Source: an uncultured Methanosarcinales archaeon (GTDB lineage: Archaea; Nanobdellota; Nanobdellia; Woesearchaeales; CAYMBN01). Taken from it: a DNA stretch of 64,000 bases. The notes beneath the pieces are model-generated. The model worked only from the letters and a program-made list of their open reading frames with translations. It was not told the origin of the DNA and made no database searches. Within the stretch, counting starts at the first letter, position 1, and each line of letters begins with the position of its first letter. Both the position numbers and the translations under genes were made by a program. The stretch lies in NCBI GenBank assembly GCA_964388715.1, contig CAYMBN010000001.1:200962-264961 (forward strand). Reading direction: 5' to 3'. Shown piece after piece: positions 13,808 through 61,531 of this stretch.

Positions 13808-13923
13808 GCCGCGGTGGCACAACCTGGTACTGCGCAGGATTGCTAATCCTGTTTCCTCTGGATATGAGGGTTCAAATATCAGAAAGGTTCAAACCTTTCG
13901 GTTTGAAAGTCCCTCCCGCGGCG
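13808..13923 (+). tRNA. tRNA-Ser(GCT) with about 33-nt intron in the T-loop
   Basis: GCCGCGG/CCGCGGC acceptor, CAGGA-TTGCTAA-TCCTG, long variable arm, G73; GAGGG-TTCAAA[intron]T-CCCTC. Confidence 0.9.
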
Positions 13924-18430: not shown

Positions 18431-19753
18431 ATGTTTAAATTCCTAAAAGAAAAACTGAAGAAAGGACTTGATCTATTTAGTAAGAAGGTTGAAGAAGATG
18501 TTGTTAGTGAGGAAGTTGTTGAAGAAAAGGTTGAAGAAGTTAAAGTTGAAGAGAAAAAGGTTGTTGAGGAGTTTAAAGATAGGATTCCTACTGCTTATGA
18601 ACTAGCGCAACGTAAGAAAAAGAAAGAAGTTGAAGAGAAAAAGGAAGAAGTGATTGAAGAGCTTGAACCTGAACCTGAGGTTGAAGTGGAGGAGAAAAAA
18701 CCTAGTGCTGCTGAGTTATTAAAGCAGGTTGATGAAAAACCTCAAGTAAAGATTCCTACTGCTGCTGAAATACTTGATCAAGCTGTTGAAGAAAAAGAAA
18801 AGTTGGAGAAGAGAATACCAACTGCAAGAGAAGTTGTTGAAAAATTAAGAGAAGAGAAAAAAGAGCCTGAGAAAAAAGGGTTTTTTGGGAAATTAAAAGA
18901 TAAGATTGTTACTAAAAAGATTGATGAGAAACAGTTTGAAGAATTGTTTTGGAATCTTGAGTTAATTCTTTTGGAAAATAATGTTGCTGTTGAAGTTATT
19001 GAAAAGATTAAGAGTGATCTTAAGGAAGAACTTGTTGATAAACCTATTCAAAGAGGAAAAGTTTTGGATAGAATTTCTGGAGTTTTGAAAAACAGTGTTG
19101 AAGGATTGTTTGATGTTGAACAGTTTGATTTGTTAGAAAGAGTTAAGGTTAAGAGTCCTTTTATTATTTGTTTTGTTGGTATTAACGGTTCTGGAAAAAC
19201 AACAACTATTGCAAAGATTGCTCAGTTGTTAATGGATAATGATCTTAAATGTGTGATGGCTGCTGCTGATACGTTTAGAGCAGCTTCAATTGAACAGTTG
19301 GAAGAACATGCTAATAATTTAGGTGTTAAAGTAATTAAACATGATTATGGTAGTGATGCTGCTGCTGTTGCGTTTGATGCAGTACGTTATGCAGAATCAA
19401 AAGGTACTGATGTTGTTTTGGTTGATACAGCTGGTAGATTACAGTCAAATGTTAATTTAATGGATGAATTGAAAAAAGTTATTAGAGTTGTTAAACCTGA
19501 TTTAACATTGTTTGTTGGAGAATCTATAACTGGAAATGATTGTGTTAATCAAGCAAGAGAATTCAATGAAATTGTTGGAATTGATGGAATTATATTATCT
19601 AAAGCAGATATTGATGAGAAAGGTGGTGCTGCTATTTCAGTAAGTTATGTTACTAAGAAGCCTATATTGTTTATTGGTACAGGTCAAGAGTATAAAGATC
19701 TGAAAGAATTTAATTCTGATGTTGTGGTTGAGAGTTTAGGATTGGAAAGTTAA
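18431..19753 (+). CDS. ftsY: Signal recognition particle receptor FtsY with acidic N-terminal extension
   Basis: GINGSGKTTTIAK, DTFRAAS, DTAGR, KADIDEKGG, GTGQ. Confidence 0.97.
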   Translation: MFKFLKEKLKKGLDLFSKKVEEDVVSEEVVEEKVEEVKVEEKKVVEEFKDRIPTAYELAQRKKKKEVEEKKEEVIEELEPEPEVEVEEKKPSAAELLKQVDEKPQVKIPTAAEILDQAVEEKEKLEKRIPTAREVVEKLREEKKEPEKKGFFGKLKDKIVTKKIDEKQFEELFWNLELILLENNVAVEVIEKIKSDLKEELVDKPIQRGKVLDRISGVLKNSVEGLFDVEQFDLLERVKVKSPFIICFVGINGSGKTTTIAKIAQLLMDNDLKCVMAAADTFRAASIEQLEEHANNLGVKVIKHDYGSDAAAVAFDAVRYAESKGTDVVLVDTAGRLQSNVNLMDELKKVIRVVKPDLTLFVGESITGNDCVNQAREFNEIVGIDGIILSKADIDEKGGAAISVSYVTKKPILFIGTGQEYKDLKEFNSDVVVESLGLES

Positions 19754-20702
19754 ATTCTGTTGTTATGATTTCTAAATCTTGTAATTCTGGTACTGCATCT
19801 ACAATGTAAAGGTCTGTGATGATAGTTTTTGGTTCTGGTAACCTTTCTAAATAAATACTAAAGTCAGGGTAAAACATGACTGTTTCAGCAAATCTATCTT
19901 TAATACACTTACGCATCATTTTTTGTATAGCTTCTGGTTGATCATCAATTGTGGAATTTATCATATCTAAAAAATCCTGTATTTCCTTAGGAATCTCAGG
20001 TTCTTTTTGTAGATAAACAGTATACTTTGTTGGTTTAAAATTAGGTGGATAAAAATACAAAGGCAAGGATTCTGAAACTTGATTTGCTCTAAACCTTTCT
20101 TCATAGTATTCTTCTATTTGTTTAAGTTTGTCTCTATTCATAGGAAAACTTTCAATATTTTGAACTGCTTGTTCTAATACTGAACTAACATTTAGGTGAG
20201 GTAATTGTACTTTTGATTTTTCACCAAGTTCTTTAATTTGACGCTTTGAAATTTGAGCATGTGCAATTGTAGTCATAAGAGGTATTAAAAATTCTAAATT
20301 TTTGGGAATAGTCTTGTCAAGCAAAATAGAGGGATTACAAAATAAATATTTGACATTTCGGTAGAAATATTCTGCATCAACAAGATCTTTTATTTCTTCT
20401 TTTTCTAATTTTAATGCTGTTCTTAAAATGGTTAATGGAAGAAAAGTTGTAAAATAATCAATAGATCCAAATTCTTTTATTAAGCTTTCAGATTCATGAA
20501 AAAAATCTCTAATAGGTTGTAAGTAAGTCACAACACCTATTGTTTCAGGTAGATCTGGAACTGTCTTTCTCAGGTGCTCATAGTTAACCCTTAATTTTTC
20601 TCTGGTATTTTCACATAATCCATACATAGAACGATACATTTCTGTATTATCAAATCTAAACAAATCTGAATTCGGAGTGTATATTATGTGTATTGGTTTC
20701 AT
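19710..20702 (-). CDS. Hypothetical protein
   Basis: 330-aa ORF with AAGGTGA site; convergent overlap with ftsY. Confidence 0.7.
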   Translation of the reverse strand: MKPIHIIYTPNSDLFRFDNTEMYRSMYGLCENTREKLRVNYEHLRKTVPDLPETIGVVTYLQPIRDFFHESESLIKEFGSIDYFTTFLPLTILRTALKLEKEEIKDLVDAEYFYRNVKYLFCNPSILLDKTIPKNLEFLIPLMTTIAHAQISKRQIKELGEKSKVQLPHLNVSSVLEQAVQNIESFPMNRDKLKQIEEYYEERFRANQVSESLPLYFYPPNFKPTKYTVYLQKEPEIPKEIQDFLDMINSTIDDQPEAIQKMMRKCIKDRFAETVMFYPDFSIYLERLPEPKTIITDLYIVDAVPELQDLEIITTEFNFPILNSQPQHQN

Positions 20703-20757
20703 TTTTATTGTTAGAAATCACCTTTTTTATTGAAAATAGGAGGTTTGGTTTATAAAT

Positions 20758-21423
20758 TTATTCAAACTCAACTTTTCCTTTGTAATAAATGCCTTTATGG
20801 AGTTTGACTGGGCGCCAGTTGTCTATGATTAGGTTTGCATTGAGCCATTTAGAAAGTTCTTTTGGGTTGCCTATTGTTGCGCTTAATGCTATTATTTGTG
20901 CGTGAGGGAGGAGTTCTCTTAGGATTGTTAAGAGGATTTCTAGGGTTGGACCTCTGCTGATGTCATTTAATAAGTGGACTTCGTCAACAATTATTGTAGA
21001 AACATCTCTGAGCCATGGTGAGTGGTGGCGAATCAAGGAATCTAATTTTTCAGAAGTTGTTAGGATGAGGTCATAGTTCGCTAAGTAAGGTTCTGCACTG
21101 TCCATGTCTCCTATTGAAAGTGCGATTCTGCAGAGATGTTGGTATTTTCGTTTGAAATCTTTGAATTTTTCGTTTGCTAAGGATTTGAGTGGAACAATGT
21201 AAATGGTTTTTCCGATTCTGTTGATTATGTTTTTTAATGCAATTAGTTCTGCGATTAATGTTTTACCTGAAGCAGTTGGTGTGCAGACAAGAAGGTTTTT
21301 TTTGTCAAATAGTCCTTTGTTAATTGCTTTGGTTTGACATTTTCTTAGTTCTGCTATGTTTTCTGCTTTTAGAACTGTGTATAATTGTTCTGGGATTTGT
21401 TTTTTTATGTCTTTTAGATTCAT
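20758..21423 (-). CDS. Ski2/Hel308-like helicase N-terminal (DExH) domain only
   Basis: PTASGKT, VPLKSLANEK, DEVH, LSAT, WRPVKL; stops before the second RecA domain. Confidence 0.85.
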   Translation of the reverse strand: MNLKDIKKQIPEQLYTVLKAENIAELRKCQTKAINKGLFDKKNLLVCTPTASGKTLIAELIALKNIINRIGKTIYIVPLKSLANEKFKDFKRKYQHLCRIALSIGDMDSAEPYLANYDLILTTSEKLDSLIRHHSPWLRDVSTIIVDEVHLLNDISRGPTLEILLTILRELLPHAQIIALSATIGNPKELSKWLNANLIIDNWRPVKLHKGIYYKGKVEFE

Positions 21424-21439
21424 TTTTCTTATTAAAGGG

Positions 21440-21561
21440 CGCCGGGGGCGGGATTTTCACCCGAGGTTCAAATCAATGAAGCCAAGATATTTGAACCCGC
21501 ATGATCCGGTGAGATCACTTAGTTCTAAACTAAGCGTCATACCAAATTAGACAACCCCGGC
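21440..21561 (-). tRNA. tRNA with TAG anticodon (nominally Leu) but Ser-like body; about 36-nt T-loop intron
   Basis: GCCGGGG/CCCCGGC-G73; CTTAG-TTTAGAA-CTAAG; variable arm TGATC..GATCA; GCGGG-TTCAAA[intron]T-CCCGC. Confidence 0.85.
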
Positions 21562-21602
21562 ATTATGGAAAAGTTTAAATATGAGCTTAACTTATAATAC
21601 TT

Positions 21603-21649
21603 TGATCCGGTGGAGAGTCAAGGTACATACCAAATTAAGCGACCCTGGC
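21603..21649 (-). pseudogene. Degenerate partial copy of the adjacent tRNA
   Basis: GCCAGGGTCGCTTAATTTGGTATG...CACCGGATCA matches the 5' half and variable arm; no anticodon stem or T arm. Confidence 0.65.
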
Positions 21650-21721
21650 TTTTTTTCTTTTTTTATTATTGAATTAGAATTAGTTTATATATTTTTACCG
21701 TGTTTGTCTAGTGGGGAGTGG

Positions 21722-23809
21722 TTATTCAACATGACCATTCTTTACTTTTTCTACTGTTACTTGTTTTAGTTGGAGGTTGTTGTAGTAGACTTTACTGTCT
21801 CTTATTTTGAGTTTTATTTTTTTGAATTCCTCGAATGTTATTTCTGAGGTGTTGTTTTTTAGGTTTTCTGGGTTTATTTGAGTGCCTGGTTTTGCTTTTG
21901 TTGTTAATATCCCTACATTTTTCTTTTTGTCAATGCCTGCTAATAACATTCCTTGGCTTTCAATTCCTCTAAGTTTAGCTGGTTTTAGGTTTGTGACTAC
22001 AATTAGGTTTTTGTTTTTTAGTTGGTCTTTTGTGTAGTAACCTTTAAGTCCTGCGACAAGTTGTCGCTTTTCTTTTCCAAGGTTGACTTTTAATATATAG
22101 AGTTTGTCTGCTTTTGGATGTTGTTTTACATCTGTTATTTTTGCTACTTTTAGATTGAGTGGGAATTTTTCTGTTGTTTTTTTGCCTGCAAACATTTTTC
22201 TGAATTTTTGCATATCTTTGTCTTCGAGTTTTTGGAATAAAACCTTTGCTTTGTTGATTTTGTGTGATTTTTTTATTGAGATTTTGTTAAGGTCTTTTAA
22301 TGTAAGGTCTTTTATGTTAAGTTGTTGTTGGATTGAAGCTGATGTTTGTGGTAAGAATGGACTGATTAGGATGCTTAGGTCTTTGACTACATTGATTAAA
22401 GTGGCTATTGTGTTTGGCGCAGTGTCTTTATTTTTCCATGGTTCGTTTTCTTGGAAATATTGGTTTGCAAGTTTGCTTATTGCCATGATTTTTCTTAATG
22501 ATTCTTTAAGTTGGATCTTTGACATTAGCTCTGTTACTTTGTCTGATTCTTGTTGTACTTTTTTTAGGAATGTTTTGTCTGGTTTAAAGTTTGGAACTTG
22601 ATTGTTGAAAAATCTGTTTGTGAATGTGATTGTTCTGTTTACTAAGTTTCCAAAGTTTGCAATAAGTTCTTTATTTAATTTTGCTTGGAAATCTTCCCAA
22701 ATAAATTCTGTATCTGTTTTTTCTGGACGGTTTACAATGATGTAATAACGCCAAACATCTGCTGCAATACCTGTTGCTTTTGCATCGTCGCCAAAAACAC
22801 CGATGTTTCTTGACTTTGAGAAATGGCCTGATTCATAATTAAGGTATTCGTTAACAGAGAGTTCTCTAACTAAAGTGTAAGGATCTTTTGTTCCTATTAG
22901 GAATCCTGGGAATAAAATTGTGTGGAATGGAATGTTATCTTTGCCCATGAACTGAACTAGTTTAACATCTTTGTTGTTTTTCCACCAGTTTTGCCAGTTA
23001 GGTTTGTGTTCTTTTGTGATTCCAATGTATCCAATAGGTGCGTCAAACCATGAGTAAAATACTTTATCTTCATATCCTTTTTTTGGCACAGGTATTCCCC
23101 ATTTAAGGTCACGTGTTATGCAACGTGGTTTAATACCTTCCTTAAGCCAGGCATAAGTCATTGTTCTTGCGTTTTCTGACCAGTTTTTTTCAACTGTTTT
23201 GATCCAGGATTTTAATTGAGGTTCAAGTTTTGGTAAGTCAATGAATAAATGGTGTGTTTCTTTTACTTCTGGGGTTGAAGAGCAGATTTTGCATTTTGCG
23301 TTGATTAATTCTGTTGCATTCAATAGTTTACCACAGTGTTCGCATTGGTCACCACGTGCTTCTTTGTAATTGCAAAAAGGACATTCGCCTTCAACAAAAC
23401 GATCTGCTAGAAATTTATTGCATTTTTTACAGAATGTTTGTTCAAGTATGTCTTCTTTGATAAAACCGTTTTTGTCGAGTTTTTTGAAAATATCAATTGT
23501 AACTTCTTTATTTGGTTTAGAGCTGGTTCTTCCGAAGCAGTCAAAGTCGCAATTGAACCAATCATAGATTTCTTTTTGGAGTTTATAGTATTTATCTGTG
23601 ATTTGTCTTGGTGTGAGACCTTCTTCTAATGCTTTTGTTTCTGTTGTGGTTCCGTGTTCATCTGTTCCGCACACGCTGATAACGTTTTCTCCTTTAAGCC
23701 TGAGAAATCTAGTATAAACATCTGCACTTAGCACGCATACCATTGTTCCAAGATGTGGCAGATTGTTTACATAAGGTAATGCGCTTGTTACGAGTATTTT
23801 TTTGGTCAT
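21722..23809 (-). CDS. metG: Methionyl-tRNA synthetase with C-terminal tRNA-binding domain
   Basis: SALPYVNNLPHLG, GTDEHGT, Zn knuckle, GKDNIPFH, FSKS, C-terminal OB domain. Confidence 0.97.
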   Translation of the reverse strand: MTKKILVTSALPYVNNLPHLGTMVCVLSADVYTRFLRLKGENVISVCGTDEHGTTTETKALEEGLTPRQITDKYYKLQKEIYDWFNCDFDCFGRTSSKPNKEVTIDIFKKLDKNGFIKEDILEQTFCKKCNKFLADRFVEGECPFCNYKEARGDQCEHCGKLLNATELINAKCKICSSTPEVKETHHLFIDLPKLEPQLKSWIKTVEKNWSENARTMTYAWLKEGIKPRCITRDLKWGIPVPKKGYEDKVFYSWFDAPIGYIGITKEHKPNWQNWWKNNKDVKLVQFMGKDNIPFHTILFPGFLIGTKDPYTLVRELSVNEYLNYESGHFSKSRNIGVFGDDAKATGIAADVWRYYIIVNRPEKTDTEFIWEDFQAKLNKELIANFGNLVNRTITFTNRFFNNQVPNFKPDKTFLKKVQQESDKVTELMSKIQLKESLRKIMAISKLANQYFQENEPWKNKDTAPNTIATLINVVKDLSILISPFLPQTSASIQQQLNIKDLTLKDLNKISIKKSHKINKAKVLFQKLEDKDMQKFRKMFAGKKTTEKFPLNLKVAKITDVKQHPKADKLYILKVNLGKEKRQLVAGLKGYYTKDQLKNKNLIVVTNLKPAKLRGIESQGMLLAGIDKKKNVGILTTKAKPGTQINPENLKNNTSEITFEEFKKIKLKIRDSKVYYNNLQLKQVTVEKVKNGHVE

Positions 23810-46094: not shown

Positions 46095-46247
46095 GCCGTG
46101 GTGGCACAACCTGGTAAATGGCGAGGCTTGTCCGAGCCTCACTTTCAGGAAACTGCGCAAGCCTGGAAAGCTTGTTTCCTATGGATATCCCAGAGATTTT
46201 TAAGGAAATTTCTTAGAAATCGGGGAATTCAAATCTGGGCCACGGCG
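46095..46247 (+). tRNA. tRNA-Ser(GGA) with two non-canonical introns (D-loop about 36 nt; T-arm 53/54 about 34 nt)
   Basis: GCCGTGG/CCACGGC-G; CAAGC-CTGGAAA-GCTTG; exons nearly match tRNA-Ser(GCT). Confidence 0.88.
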
Positions 46248-48251: not shown

Positions 48252-48374
48252 TGGGCCTGACCGGACTTTCAAAAATTGGAATTTTCAATTCCAATTAATA
48301 TTTGAACCGGCGATCCTCTCCATTTTGAGTTTTAACTCGTCAAGGAGATGTCATAGCCACTAGACCACAAGCCC
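48252..48374 (-). tRNA. tRNA-Val(GAC) with anticodon-loop intron (about 15 nt) and T-loop intron
   Basis: GGGCTTG/CAGGCCC-A; TCTCC-TTGAC..GGAGA; GCCGG-TTCAAA[intron]TCCGGT. Confidence 0.87.
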
Positions 48375-49298: not shown

Positions 49299-49964
49299 AT
49301 GTTATCAAAACATGAGAGATTGTTGGAAAGGTTTGAAAAGAAACGGCTTGAGTTTAATAAAACAAAAGATAAAGAAAGGAAAGAGTTGATTAAGAAAGAA
49401 GTTAGAGAGTTAGTTAAGGATTTTCCTGCGCTAAAAGGGTTTTATTCTAATGCTAGAGTTTTTTGGGATTCTGAAGCTCTTATATGGAAGTATAGGATTG
49501 AGCCTGAATATAGAGAGTTTGTTAGGAAATTTTTGAAAAGGAAGGTGAAAGGTAAGATTTTGGATATTGGTTGTGGTAGTTATCCTTATTTTGATTCAGT
49601 TTGTTTGGATATTTCTCATAATATGTTGAGTTTGGTTAATGGGAAACGGGTTCAAGCTGATGTTGAGAAAGGATTGCCTTTTAAAAAAGATTGTTTTGAT
49701 ACTGTTCTTATGGTTTTTCTTTTAAAGTATGTGAAGAATATTGAAGGATTGTTAAAAGAAGCTAAGAGGGTTTGTAAAGGAAAGATAATAATTGTAGAGT
49801 CTTTGGCTAAAACAAATGATTGGTTTGTTGAACAGTTGAAGCAGAAGGATGATGGTTTTGATGAATTCTTGATTAAGTTGTTGAAGAAGAAGAGGTTTAA
49901 GTTTAAGAAGTCTGTTAAAAAGGTTGGGAAGAAAGAGTTGTTGATTGTAAAGATTGGAAAATAA
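49299..49964 (+). CDS. Class I SAM-dependent methyltransferase
   Basis: ILDIGCGS, LDIS..ML, ADVEKGLPFKKDCFD. Confidence 0.85.
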   Translation: MLSKHERLLERFEKKRLEFNKTKDKERKELIKKEVRELVKDFPALKGFYSNARVFWDSEALIWKYRIEPEYREFVRKFLKRKVKGKILDIGCGSYPYFDSVCLDISHNMLSLVNGKRVQADVEKGLPFKKDCFDTVLMVFLLKYVKNIEGLLKEAKRVCKGKIIIVESLAKTNDWFVEQLKQKDDGFDEFLIKLLKKKRFKFKKSVKKVGKKELLIVKIGK

Positions 49965-50085
49965 GCCTCTGGAGGGATCTGCACCCTCGACCTCGGCCTT
50001 ACCAAGGCTTTGCGGACACTTGAAAAACCAGAGTGTCTCGCGCAATTTGTAGGACCTAAAGATCTAGCTACTATGCTACAGAGGC
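49964..50085 (-). tRNA. tRNA-Thr(GGT) with two non-canonical introns (D-loop and anticodon stem)
   Basis: GCCTCTG/CAGAGGC-T; CG[intron]GCC-TTGGTAA-GGCCG; T-loop TGCAGAT with A18/G55 covariation. Confidence 0.82.
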
Positions 50086-52057: not shown

Positions 52058-52199
52058 TGCGAGGGAGGGGACATTCGTGCCATATGGCATTTCGAACCCC
52101 CGGACCCACTAAGAGACAGGATAACATATTAATTCCCATTATCAACAATGGGTGTCAATCTTAAGTCCTGCGCATTTGACCAGACTCTGCAACCCTCGC
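52058..52199 (-). tRNA. tRNA-Leu(TAA) with anticodon-loop and T-loop introns
   Basis: GCGAGGG/CCCTCGC-A73; CAGGA-CTTAAG[intron]A-TCCTG; long variable arm. Confidence 0.88.
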
Positions 52200-61409: not shown

Positions 61410-61531
61410 GCCGCTGTAGCTCAGCCTGGTTAGAGCGCTAGACTCATATTTTTGAGTGATGAGGATTATTCCGATGAAAAGACTCATAACGAGGCATCTA
61501 GAGGCCATGGGTTCAGATCCCGTCAGCGGCA
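61410..61531 (+). tRNA. tRNA with CAT anticodon (probably elongator Met), 47-nt intron at 37/38
   Basis: GCCGCTG/CAGCGGC-A; CTAGA-CTCATA[61449-61495]A-TCTAG; GGGTTCAGATCCC. Confidence 0.87.

Follow-up and report, generated by a model that had tools for sequence, protein, structure and literature searches.

A serine-type tRNA with a leucine anticodon in a Woesearchaeales genome, and its family of relatives with co-varying upstream self-copies

A 64,000-nucleotide stretch of contig CAYMBN010000001.1, from an uncultured Methanosarcinales archaeon that GTDB places in the Woesearchaeales, carries a transfer RNA (tRNA) gene whose body and anticodon disagree. The body is of the serine type, with a long variable arm and G as the discriminator base (G73); the anticodon, UAG, is a leucine anticodon and neither of the serine types NGA and GCU. 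This whole stretch is called the window below (G000:C1:200962-264961, G000 being the source genome). We report that the gene belongs to a family of serine-derived tRNAs that invariably carry A at position 35, the middle of the anticodon. Family members are preceded by a diverged partial copy of their own tRNA, and where the copy spans the anticodon loop it varies in step with the tRNA. Tentatively, we favour the reading that the tRNA is charged with serine, would mistranslate, and is held in check by an antisense RNA made from its own upstream copy.

tRNAs with a mismatch between body and anticodon are raw material for changes in the genetic code and for deliberate mistranslation. Natural examples have so far been documented in yeasts and in a few bacteria. 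The original prediction, made from the window itself, treated the gene as a single case and offered three options: an ambiguous or mistranslating tRNA, a tRNA recruited across isoacceptor families, or a tRNA with a role outside translation. The treatment as a singleton did not survive, since the gene has relatives in many genomes, all with NAN anticodons (A flanked by any nucleotide) and with co-varying upstream self-copies. A mistranslating tRNA is still the most likely of the three options. Recruitment across families is right as to descent from tRNA-Ser and wrong if taken to mean that this is the cell's decoder for leucine; the gene is an extra one.

An intact extra tRNA gene with a serine-type body

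The gene spans 122 nt and reads as a class II tRNA (Table 1). The acceptor stem has 7 bp and the D stem 3 bp, with a D loop of 9 nt. A perfect 5-bp anticodon stem closes a 7-nt loop that holds U33, the TAG anticodon and A37. The variable region of 17 nt forms a hairpin of 5-6 bp, the long arm typical of class II, and a 5-bp T stem carries a T loop split by a 36-nt intron. Compared with 200 shuffled sequences, the fold has a z score of -5.0. The gene shows neither the broken stems nor the lost positions of a tRNA pseudogene: all stems are paired, and U33, G18/G19 and the T-loop positions are present. The stems and intron are as intact as originally described.

Table 1. Features of the locus and of the comparison set (window positions unless a contig of the source genome G000 is named)
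Feature	Position	Strand	Basis or remark
tRNA gene, serine-type long-arm body, anticodon UAG, G73	21440..21561	-	cloverleaf parse, serine covariance model, contigs of runs X1, X3 and X5
5' exon, tRNA positions 1-59	21490..21561	-	parse; splice site inferred from bulge-helix-bulge geometry
36-nt T-loop intron at 59/60	21454..21489	-	predicted splice positions
3' exon: T60, T-stem 3' strand, acceptor 3' strand, G73	21440..21453	-	CCA not encoded
Anticodon TAG (cta on + strand)	21525..21527	-	sequence, independent contigs
TATA-like box B, centre about 25 nt from copy end, spacing fits a promoter toward the copy (+)	21574..21581	.	sequence
TATA-like box A, starts at -38 from the tRNA	21592..21599	-	sequence
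Partial, diverged, same-sense self-copy (acceptor 5' strand, D arm, variable arm; no anticodon arm)	21603..21649	-	local alignment
A-run (T-run on + strand), predicted antisense terminator	21650..21666	-	sequence
Methionyl-tRNA synthetase gene, upstream, same strand as the tRNA	21722..23809	-	Pfam tRNA-synt_1g, E = 7.7e-152
Short DEAD-box helicase gene, directly downstream of the tRNA	20758..21423	-	G206 ortholog, 55% identity
tRNA-Ser(GCU), canonical, intron-bearing	13808-13923
tRNA-Ser(GGA), canonical, two introns	46095-46247
tRNA-Ser(UGA), canonical	C9:46207-46341
tRNA-Leu(UAA), canonical, intron-bearing	52058-52199 (C1:253019-253160)
tRNA-Leu(GAG), canonical	C2:46089-46192
tRNA-Leu(UAG), canonical	C3:113179-113300
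tRNA-Leu(CAA), canonical	C4:42479-42617
tRNA-Val(GAC), intron-bearing	48252-48374
tRNA-Thr, intron-bearing	49964-50085
tRNA-Met, intron-bearing	61410-61531

The intron was placed by comparison within the source genome (1.30 Mb in 31 contigs, 30.8% G+C, an estimated 95.8% complete). A custom scan found 16 tRNA genes there with T loops longer than 7 nt. These enlarged loops have in common a TTCA/TGAA central helix with 3-nt bulges, which puts an intron between positions 59 and 60; the same bulge-helix-bulge geometry gives the predicted splice sites of our candidate. The 3' part of its intron ends in the motif GGGTGAAAAT, which is characteristic of the family and overlaps the first base of the exon. 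Noncanonical archaeal introns with a bulge-helix-bulge motif at 59/60 are described in Thermoproteales and ARMAN-2 (PMC5829648), and the likeness extends to the T-loop site, the 4-bp central helix and the 3-nt bulges. The introns are an ordinary trait of the lineage, and explain neither the anticodon nor the upstream copy.

Is the body that of a serine or a leucine tRNA? Custom scans and ARAGORN run with introns allowed identified four canonical leucine tRNA genes and three canonical serine tRNA genes in the source genome (Table 1), so that the candidate is an eighth, extra long-arm tRNA. All four leucine genes start with GCG and have A73, a long D loop of the GGTCAAA type and G37. All three serine genes start with GCC and have G73 and a short D loop. 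The candidate starts with GCC and has a D loop of the short type, G73 and A37; its variable loop lacks a motif common to the four leucine genes. The comparisons of serine and leucine bodies in the original prediction are correct when all of these genes are considered. Both sets are complete, with separate canonical genes for tRNA-Leu(UAG) and tRNA-Ser(UGA), as had been proposed for checking. The candidate is not the cell's Leu(UAG) decoder.

Covariance models point the same way. Ours were small and home-made, built from intron-free tRNAs of G206 (three serine, four leucine), a complete genome from another family of the order, and are not the isotype models of tRNAscan-SE. The candidate scores 48.4 bits with the serine model and has no match to the leucine model at E<=1, in agreement with the serine-type body claimed for it. 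As controls, tRNA-Leu(UAA) scores 66.5 bits with the leucine model and has no match to the serine model, tRNA-Ser(GGA) scores 53.2 bits with the serine model, and tRNA-Ser(GCU) scores 36.6 bits with the serine model versus 26.3 with the leucine model. A73 is the main leucine determinant for leucyl-tRNA synthetase (LeuRS), and the G73 of tRNA-Ser is listed as an antideterminant for the LeuRS of H. volcanii (PMC9976931). The base pair G30:C40 is a weaker identity element of tRNA-Ser (PMC9976931). The candidate has A30:U40 instead; G30:C40 is present in all three canonical serine genes and in 27 of 36 family members. The source genome encodes a single seryl-tRNA synthetase (SerRS; gene at C3:118364-119560), which has the N-terminal arm domain.

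Could the unusual anticodon be an error? The matching Logan contigs of run X3 (21154-21564) and run X5 (21418-21569) show 0 differences from the candidate. A contig from run X1, possibly the source sample, is also identical. All three runs come from one study, at a depth of about 3-6. Because these identical contigs were assembled separately, TAG is not an assembly error: all three carry TAG and none TGA. A serine anticodon TGA misassembled as TAG, or foreign DNA in the bin, draws its support from the low coverage. Against it stand the identical contigs, the distinct tRNA-Ser(UGA) gene with its different body, the position of the candidate among housekeeping genes in a 269-kb contig, and the many genomes that hold homologs with NAN anticodons. 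We regard such an artefact as scarcely conceivable.

Nor has the genetic code changed. CTA is used 10.7 times per 1000 codons (3757 occurrences in 904 long open reading frames, ORFs) and is the third most used leucine codon. A tblastn comparison of these ORFs with 400 kb of a complete relative (G016) gave 100 alignments with a mean identity of 49%. Among 367 aligned CTA codons, 56% face leucine, followed by I, V, M and F. This profile is the same as that of CTT (55% leucine, n = 878) and TTA (54%, n = 1237). Serine is outside the top seven residues facing CTA; TCA faces serine in 38% of cases. CTA therefore still encodes leucine, as originally stated. The presence of a serine-type tRNA with the matching anticodon would be expected if CUA were reassigned from leucine to serine or decoded with high ambiguity. 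Reassignment is effectively refuted, and decoding with high ambiguity is extremely improbable: CTA aligns to leucine exactly as the other leucine codons do, it is well used, and an intact canonical tRNA-Leu(UAG) is present.

Genes of this kind are easily overlooked. With default settings, ARAGORN finds 0 tRNAs in the 64-kb window; with its intron option it recovers only part of the genome's tRNA set and mislabels some. The Rfam tRNA model gives the candidate 24.3 bits, under the cut-off of 29. Both misses are due to the T-loop intron. Where family genes are found, annotation based on the anticodon would call them leucine, phenylalanine, isoleucine or valine tRNAs. At least six further intron-bearing tRNA genes lie in the window (Table 1); all of these are missed by default ARAGORN, and tRNA-Met alone passes the gathering score of Rfam.

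A family restricted to A35

A BLAST search against 40 relatives recovered a T-loop fragment only. The same search against 400 genomes of the order, which belongs to the DPANN archaea and whose publicly named members are titled Candidatus Woesearchaeota or Nanobdellati, returned long-arm tRNAs with G73, the same T-loop intron ending and differing anticodons. Pattern scans that covered the species collection, metagenomes (8 loci only) and the order itself added further members, as did a relaxed re-scan of the fetched loci. Of 401 genomes, 15 contain the strict intron motif and 0 the reversed pattern. Two of the 15 matches are not family members (one is a canonical leucine tRNA, the other a 3' fragment), and four more genomes (G072, G147, G007 and G212) have members with a looser motif. 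In all, the sample of 401 genomes from the order includes at least 17 with serine-derived, long-arm relatives.

Four features define the family as we use the term: a serine-like body with G73, A35, a T-loop intron whose end reads GGGTGAA(W)(D)T, and a partial copy of the gene upstream that follows an A-run. The candidate has all of them, with a copy that is atypical in lacking the anticodon arm. Every one of the 36 fully parsed, distinct members has A35. Their anticodons are GAA (10 members), CAG (7), GAU, GAC and UAA (3 each), GAG and UAG (2 each), and CAA, UAC, AAC, CAC, UAU and AAG (once each), 13 in total. A35 is also found in six further copies: two with introns in the anticodon loop, one truncated where its contig ends and three with faulty acceptor stems. 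All 42 copies examined thus match codons for phenylalanine, leucine, isoleucine or valine, and none has a serine anticodon.

Compensatory changes conserve the structure of these tRNAs. U33 is present in 35 of the 36 parsed members and a purine at position 37 in 30. Positions 1-4 of the anticodon stem are paired in all 36, with three to five types of base pair at each position. The T and D stems persist, and a hairpin forms in each of the variable regions, although these differ in sequence and in length (13-23 nt). Stems that vary yet stay paired across the family argue against pseudogenes. Pairing of the acceptor stem was a criterion for selecting members and hence is no evidence.

Where does the body come from? 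Ordinary serine tRNAs of Nitrososphaerota and Bathyarchaeia have the identical intron motif. In G206 the D arm is common to canonical serine tRNAs and family members, and the variable arm of one member is identical to theirs. By these shared arms, the family body is derived from tRNA-Ser. A subgroup with a long, leucine-like D loop (L181, L087, L184, L101, L118, L100, L180, L186 and L058) fits the leucine model as well as or better than the serine model, despite having G73 and an upstream copy; its copies mirror the variable arm and not the anticodon loop.

Several individual loci deserve mention. The paralogs L195 (G206:C16:181154-181270) and L193 (G206:C10:150088-150200) are near-identical, one with GAA and G73, the other with GAG and A73; L193 is the sole A73 member seen. 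Four loci (L043, L062, L102 and L182) have family-type 3' parts, namely a T arm with the intron motif and an acceptor 3' strand, and no matching 5' acceptor strand within 230 nt; these genes may be split, truncated or interrupted more than once. The intron is identical in L043, from a genome titled Woesearchaeota, and L102, from one titled Methanosarcinales, a hint of misbinning or transfer.

Copy number is patchy. The source genome has a single family gene; G206, which is 100% complete, has 12 (six GAA, four CAG, one GAG and one AAG), several of them in tandem. These stand beside a near-complete canonical set in G206, in which Rfam matches and ARAGORN together cover four serine, four leucine, three valine and two isoleucine anticodons. 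The canonical-type tRNA-Phe(GAA) of G206 (L160, G206:C3:118200-118700) matches the tRNA model from position 4 only. Its first acceptor bases are apparently located about 30 nt farther upstream, pointing to an intron within the acceptor stem. Type I isoleucine tRNAs with the anticodon UAU occur in both genomes (G000:C8:41293-41415; L137/L153 in G206), so these archaea may read AUA with a UAU tRNA.

Among the flanking genes of seven loci we found no conserved protein partner, except for a helicase in the source genome and G206. In both, the family tRNA gene or genes stand directly upstream of a short DEAD-box helicase gene, and full-length identity between the two helicases is 55%. This neighbour makes it probable that the loci are orthologous, though the tRNA reads UAG in the source genome and GAA, twice, in G206. 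The helicase of the source genome has only 221 amino acids and one RecA-like domain, and is followed by a 330-amino-acid ORF with no Pfam match (together window 19710-21423, minus strand). Because the G206 ortholog is equally short, the helicase looks like a conserved split or truncated form and not the product of a frameshift. A scan of viral contigs gave one match, which is not a tRNA; with no family member among them, there is no sign of a viral carrier. By its distribution across genomes, this multi-copy, patchy spread resembles that of a selfish element.

We found no description of archaeal or DPANN serine-bodied NAN tRNAs, or of antisense tRNA self-copies, in a search of full-text literature that took in few subscription journals. 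The family seemingly is undescribed.

Upstream self-copies and their antisense geometry

A partial copy of the candidate precedes it on the same strand (Table 1). The alignment between the two scores 29, compared with a maximum of 22-25 for shuffled sequences, and the longest exact match is 12 nt. In the members first inspected, the copies are likewise diverged, same-sense parts of the gene's own 5' half, 36-58 nt upstream. Of 38 members, 35 have an upstream region that resembles the gene's own tRNA more closely than any of 200 shuffles does, and in 33 no other member's tRNA is a better match. The longest stretch of identity measures 13 nt in the median (range 6-22) and 8 nt in shuffles. Among the controls, only one of 39 other tRNA genes in the source genome beats its shuffles, and this case is explained by a neighbouring tRNA, an artefact of a tandem cluster. 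None of 15 true serine tRNA genes from other phyla that have the same intron motif has an upstream copy.

The copies follow their tRNAs in sequence. The copy extends across the anticodon loop in 24 members; in 21 of these its anticodon is identical to that of the tRNA, compared with 61 of 552 cross pairs. The mean identity of the loops is 6.54 of 7 positions versus 3.85 for cross pairs, a value reached by 0 of 10000 permutations. Where a tRNA has an odd loop, for instance one with C33 or pyrimidine 37, its copy has it too. Two recent paralogs in G206 make the point directly: they are about 90% identical over a region that starts 200 nt or more upstream and takes in the tRNA and its T-run, yet their anticodon loops differ, and their copies differ in step. 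This co-variation implies that copy and tRNA are kept in register, whether through selection or through local gene conversion.

What might the copies be for? Their surroundings favour transcription of the opposite strand. In 31 of the 38 members a TATA-like box is centred 25-29 nt beyond the end of the copy nearer to the tRNA, and 25-29 nt is the usual distance from TATA box to start site in archaea. Relative to the tRNA, the position of this box is variable and mostly too close, starting at -20 to -16 in 18 of 38. Boxes of canonical tRNA genes lie at -35 to -31 in 27 of 34 cases in the source genome and 30 of 43 in G206. In 32 of 38 members, five or more A in a row stand before the far end of the copy, versus 11% of random windows; beside this A-run, a re-shaped, perfect hairpin often opens the copy. 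Read from the other strand, fixed TATA spacing, T-run and edge hairpin together suggest a divergent RNA of about 45-60 nt, complementary to the anticodon arm, the D arm or the variable arm. A sense promoter upstream of the copy is disfavoured: in the 38 members, TATA-like boxes there are scattered, with no sharp peak.

The candidate shows the same arrangement. Its copy, read on the plus strand, is a predicted antisense small RNA that would be driven from box B and end in the T-run. Box A lies near the canonical distance and so is likely the promoter of the tRNA. A search of the rest of the source genome for another copy of the anticodon arm of this tRNA gave none. The upstream elements of ten members match no Rfam family. 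A single sub-threshold match, of the antisense strand at L058:94-157 (-) to a bacterial family of small RNAs with a hairpin and U-tail (23.3 bits versus 41 required, E = 0.14), is probably due to chance.

A possible mistranslator and its predicted antisense RNA

For the family tRNAs we infer a scheme that comprises splicing, serylation, decoding, antisense transcription and toxicity. The locus would encode an extra, functional tRNA that descends from tRNA-Ser. Once the T-loop intron was removed, the tRNA would be serylated by the cell's single SerRS, and its UAG anticodon would direct serine to CUA and, by wobble, to CUG. Transcription of the upstream copy on its other strand would yield an antisense RNA of about 50 nt that would pair with the tRNA or its precursor and silence a mistranslator that could damage the proteome. 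That a mistranslating tRNA is toxic is our assumption. The two RNAs would make up a module like a toxin-antitoxin system, or one that is released under certain conditions, and the module may spread and duplicate like a selfish or defence element. The restriction to A35 fits a mistranslator, because codons with U in the middle encode only hydrophobic residues, where serine is arguably most damaging. The central proposal, a serine-charged mistranslating tRNA restrained by its own antisense RNA, is the explanation we favour, tentatively and at somewhat less than even odds. A bolder version seems doubtful, if quite possible: the tRNA would be the toxic part of a two-RNA addiction or defence module, neutralized by a divergently made antisense RNA that copies its anticodon or variable arm, duplicating, switching anticodons within the A35 set and spreading through DPANN archaea.

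A number of observations weigh against this reading. This member looks weaker than most: it has A37, whereas decoders of CUN codons normally have G37, it has A30:U40 where most members have G30:C40, and its upstream copy lacks the anticodon arm. The plus-strand transcript of its copy shows no unusual fold (z = -0.67), and a terminator scan found no hairpin at the copy. Across the family, the pyrimidine at position 37 in six of 36 members suggests poor decoding. The leucine-model scores of the subgroup with long D loops mean that the charging enzyme may differ between members. Finally, co-variation of copy and tRNA could stem from local gene conversion instead of selection for pairing, and local alignments inherently favour identical stretches.

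Comparison with known systems offers partial parallels. The CTG-clade yeasts have a tRNA-Ser(CAG) that joins a serine body to an anticodon from the leucine box and is charged by SerRS, since that enzyme ignores the anticodon. That tRNA decodes a reassigned CUG; the source genome keeps its tRNA-Leu(UAG), and CTA means leucine. Body and anticodon also disagree in the tRNA-ProX of Streptomyces, which serves deliberate mistranslation together with ProRSx. The latter is a dedicated synthetase paralog; here we find one SerRS and no conserved protein partner. In type I toxin-antitoxin systems such as tisB/istR-1 and zor/orz, a divergent antisense RNA has about 20 nt in common with its target; some type I pairs gain this trans-acting RNA from a direct repeat that lies upstream of the gene and is read on the other strand. 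In type VIII pairs, in which the toxin is an RNA, for example archaeal CreTA, a small RNA sequesters a tRNA. The likeness to type I systems lies in the short direct repeat just upstream, the apparent RNA from the opposite strand (predicted here), and the patchy, multi-copy occurrence. The targets differ: those systems act on the mRNA of a toxic peptide or on an RNA that sequesters a tRNA, and here the predicted target is the tRNA itself.

The closest precedent is the bacterial allo-tRNAs, found in Acidobacteria and others, which combine serine identity elements with mostly non-serine anticodons and insert serine at sense or stop codons in E. coli (PMC5389517). Their anticodons match 35 distinct codons, with UAU, GCG and GUC predominant; they often lie near toxin-antitoxin genes or transposon remnants, and some seem translationally inactive (PMC5389517). 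The candidate resembles them in pairing serine identity elements with a non-serine anticodon. It differs in structure, the allo-tRNAs being intronless with an 8/4 or 9/3 acceptor branch, the present family having the canonical 7/5 branch and a T-loop intron of the protein-spliced kind. The family is moreover archaeal, restricted to A35 and accompanied by a co-varying upstream self-copy, of which the available part of the allo-tRNA report makes no mention. In its presumed action the candidate is like an allo-tRNA; it is not a member of that group.

Three other explanations have to be set against a silenced mistranslator. The tRNA may act outside ribosomal decoding, as one strand of a regulatory sense/antisense pair, as a non-ribosomal donor of aminoacyl groups or as a mobile element's tRNA-like handle; in that case the anticodon would serve solely to pair with a partner RNA. 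Pyrimidine 37 in six of the 36 members, C33 in one, the patchy copy number and the lack of a fixed neighbourhood fit such a role. It leaves hard to explain why A35 is strictly kept over 13 anticodons, and why the complete cloverleaf, G73, the positions of tertiary pairs and U33 persist across the family, and we consider it unlikely. Could this copy simply be a decaying pseudogene, in a family that may be functional elsewhere? A37, A30:U40, a poorly paired inner helix in the splicing motif, the loss of the anticodon arm from the upstream copy and the status of sole copy in its genome all invite this thought, and the genus has no sequenced relatives in which conservation could be checked. Its four stems and variable hairpin are nevertheless perfectly paired (z = -5.0), a TATA box stands at the canonical distance, the sequence is identical in three samples, and the helicase-adjacent locus also holds family members in G206, a different family of the order. 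Decay is accordingly rather improbable.

The remaining alternative is the plainest: an ordinary tRNA that is charged according to its anticodon, here with leucine, and serves as a spare decoder that happens to descend from tRNA-Ser. The anticodons of the family do cover a coherent block of the code, position 37 suits the anticodon in about half of the cases, the subgroup with long D loops gives leucine-like scores, and the synthetases IleRS, ValRS and PheRS read the anticodon. For the candidate itself, however, the leucine model gives no match, the variable-loop motif of the genome's four leucine tRNAs is missing, and the discriminator is G73, an antideterminant for one archaeal LeuRS, in place of A73, the chief leucine determinant (PMC9976931). 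Both the source genome and G206 already possess canonical decoders, and the upstream copies would be left unexplained. Cognate charging thus has a low probability, similar to that of decay. Two further ideas, that the anticodon loop is read in a shifted frame and that the variable arm is really an intron, were dropped because they are inconsistent across members.

The bolder version, in which the tRNA is the toxic part of a two-RNA module, has a drastic corollary. If it is true, a serine-charged tRNA that reads NUN codons would, once released, wreck the cores of proteins. The family is structurally conserved, confined to the hydrophobic column of the code, multi-copy in places and coupled to a co-evolving element. 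It therefore lets one ask three questions. Can cells tolerate serine at hydrophobic codons, or even put it to use? Is it possible for an antisense RNA to regulate a tRNA? And can a tRNA itself serve as a selfish or defensive toxin?

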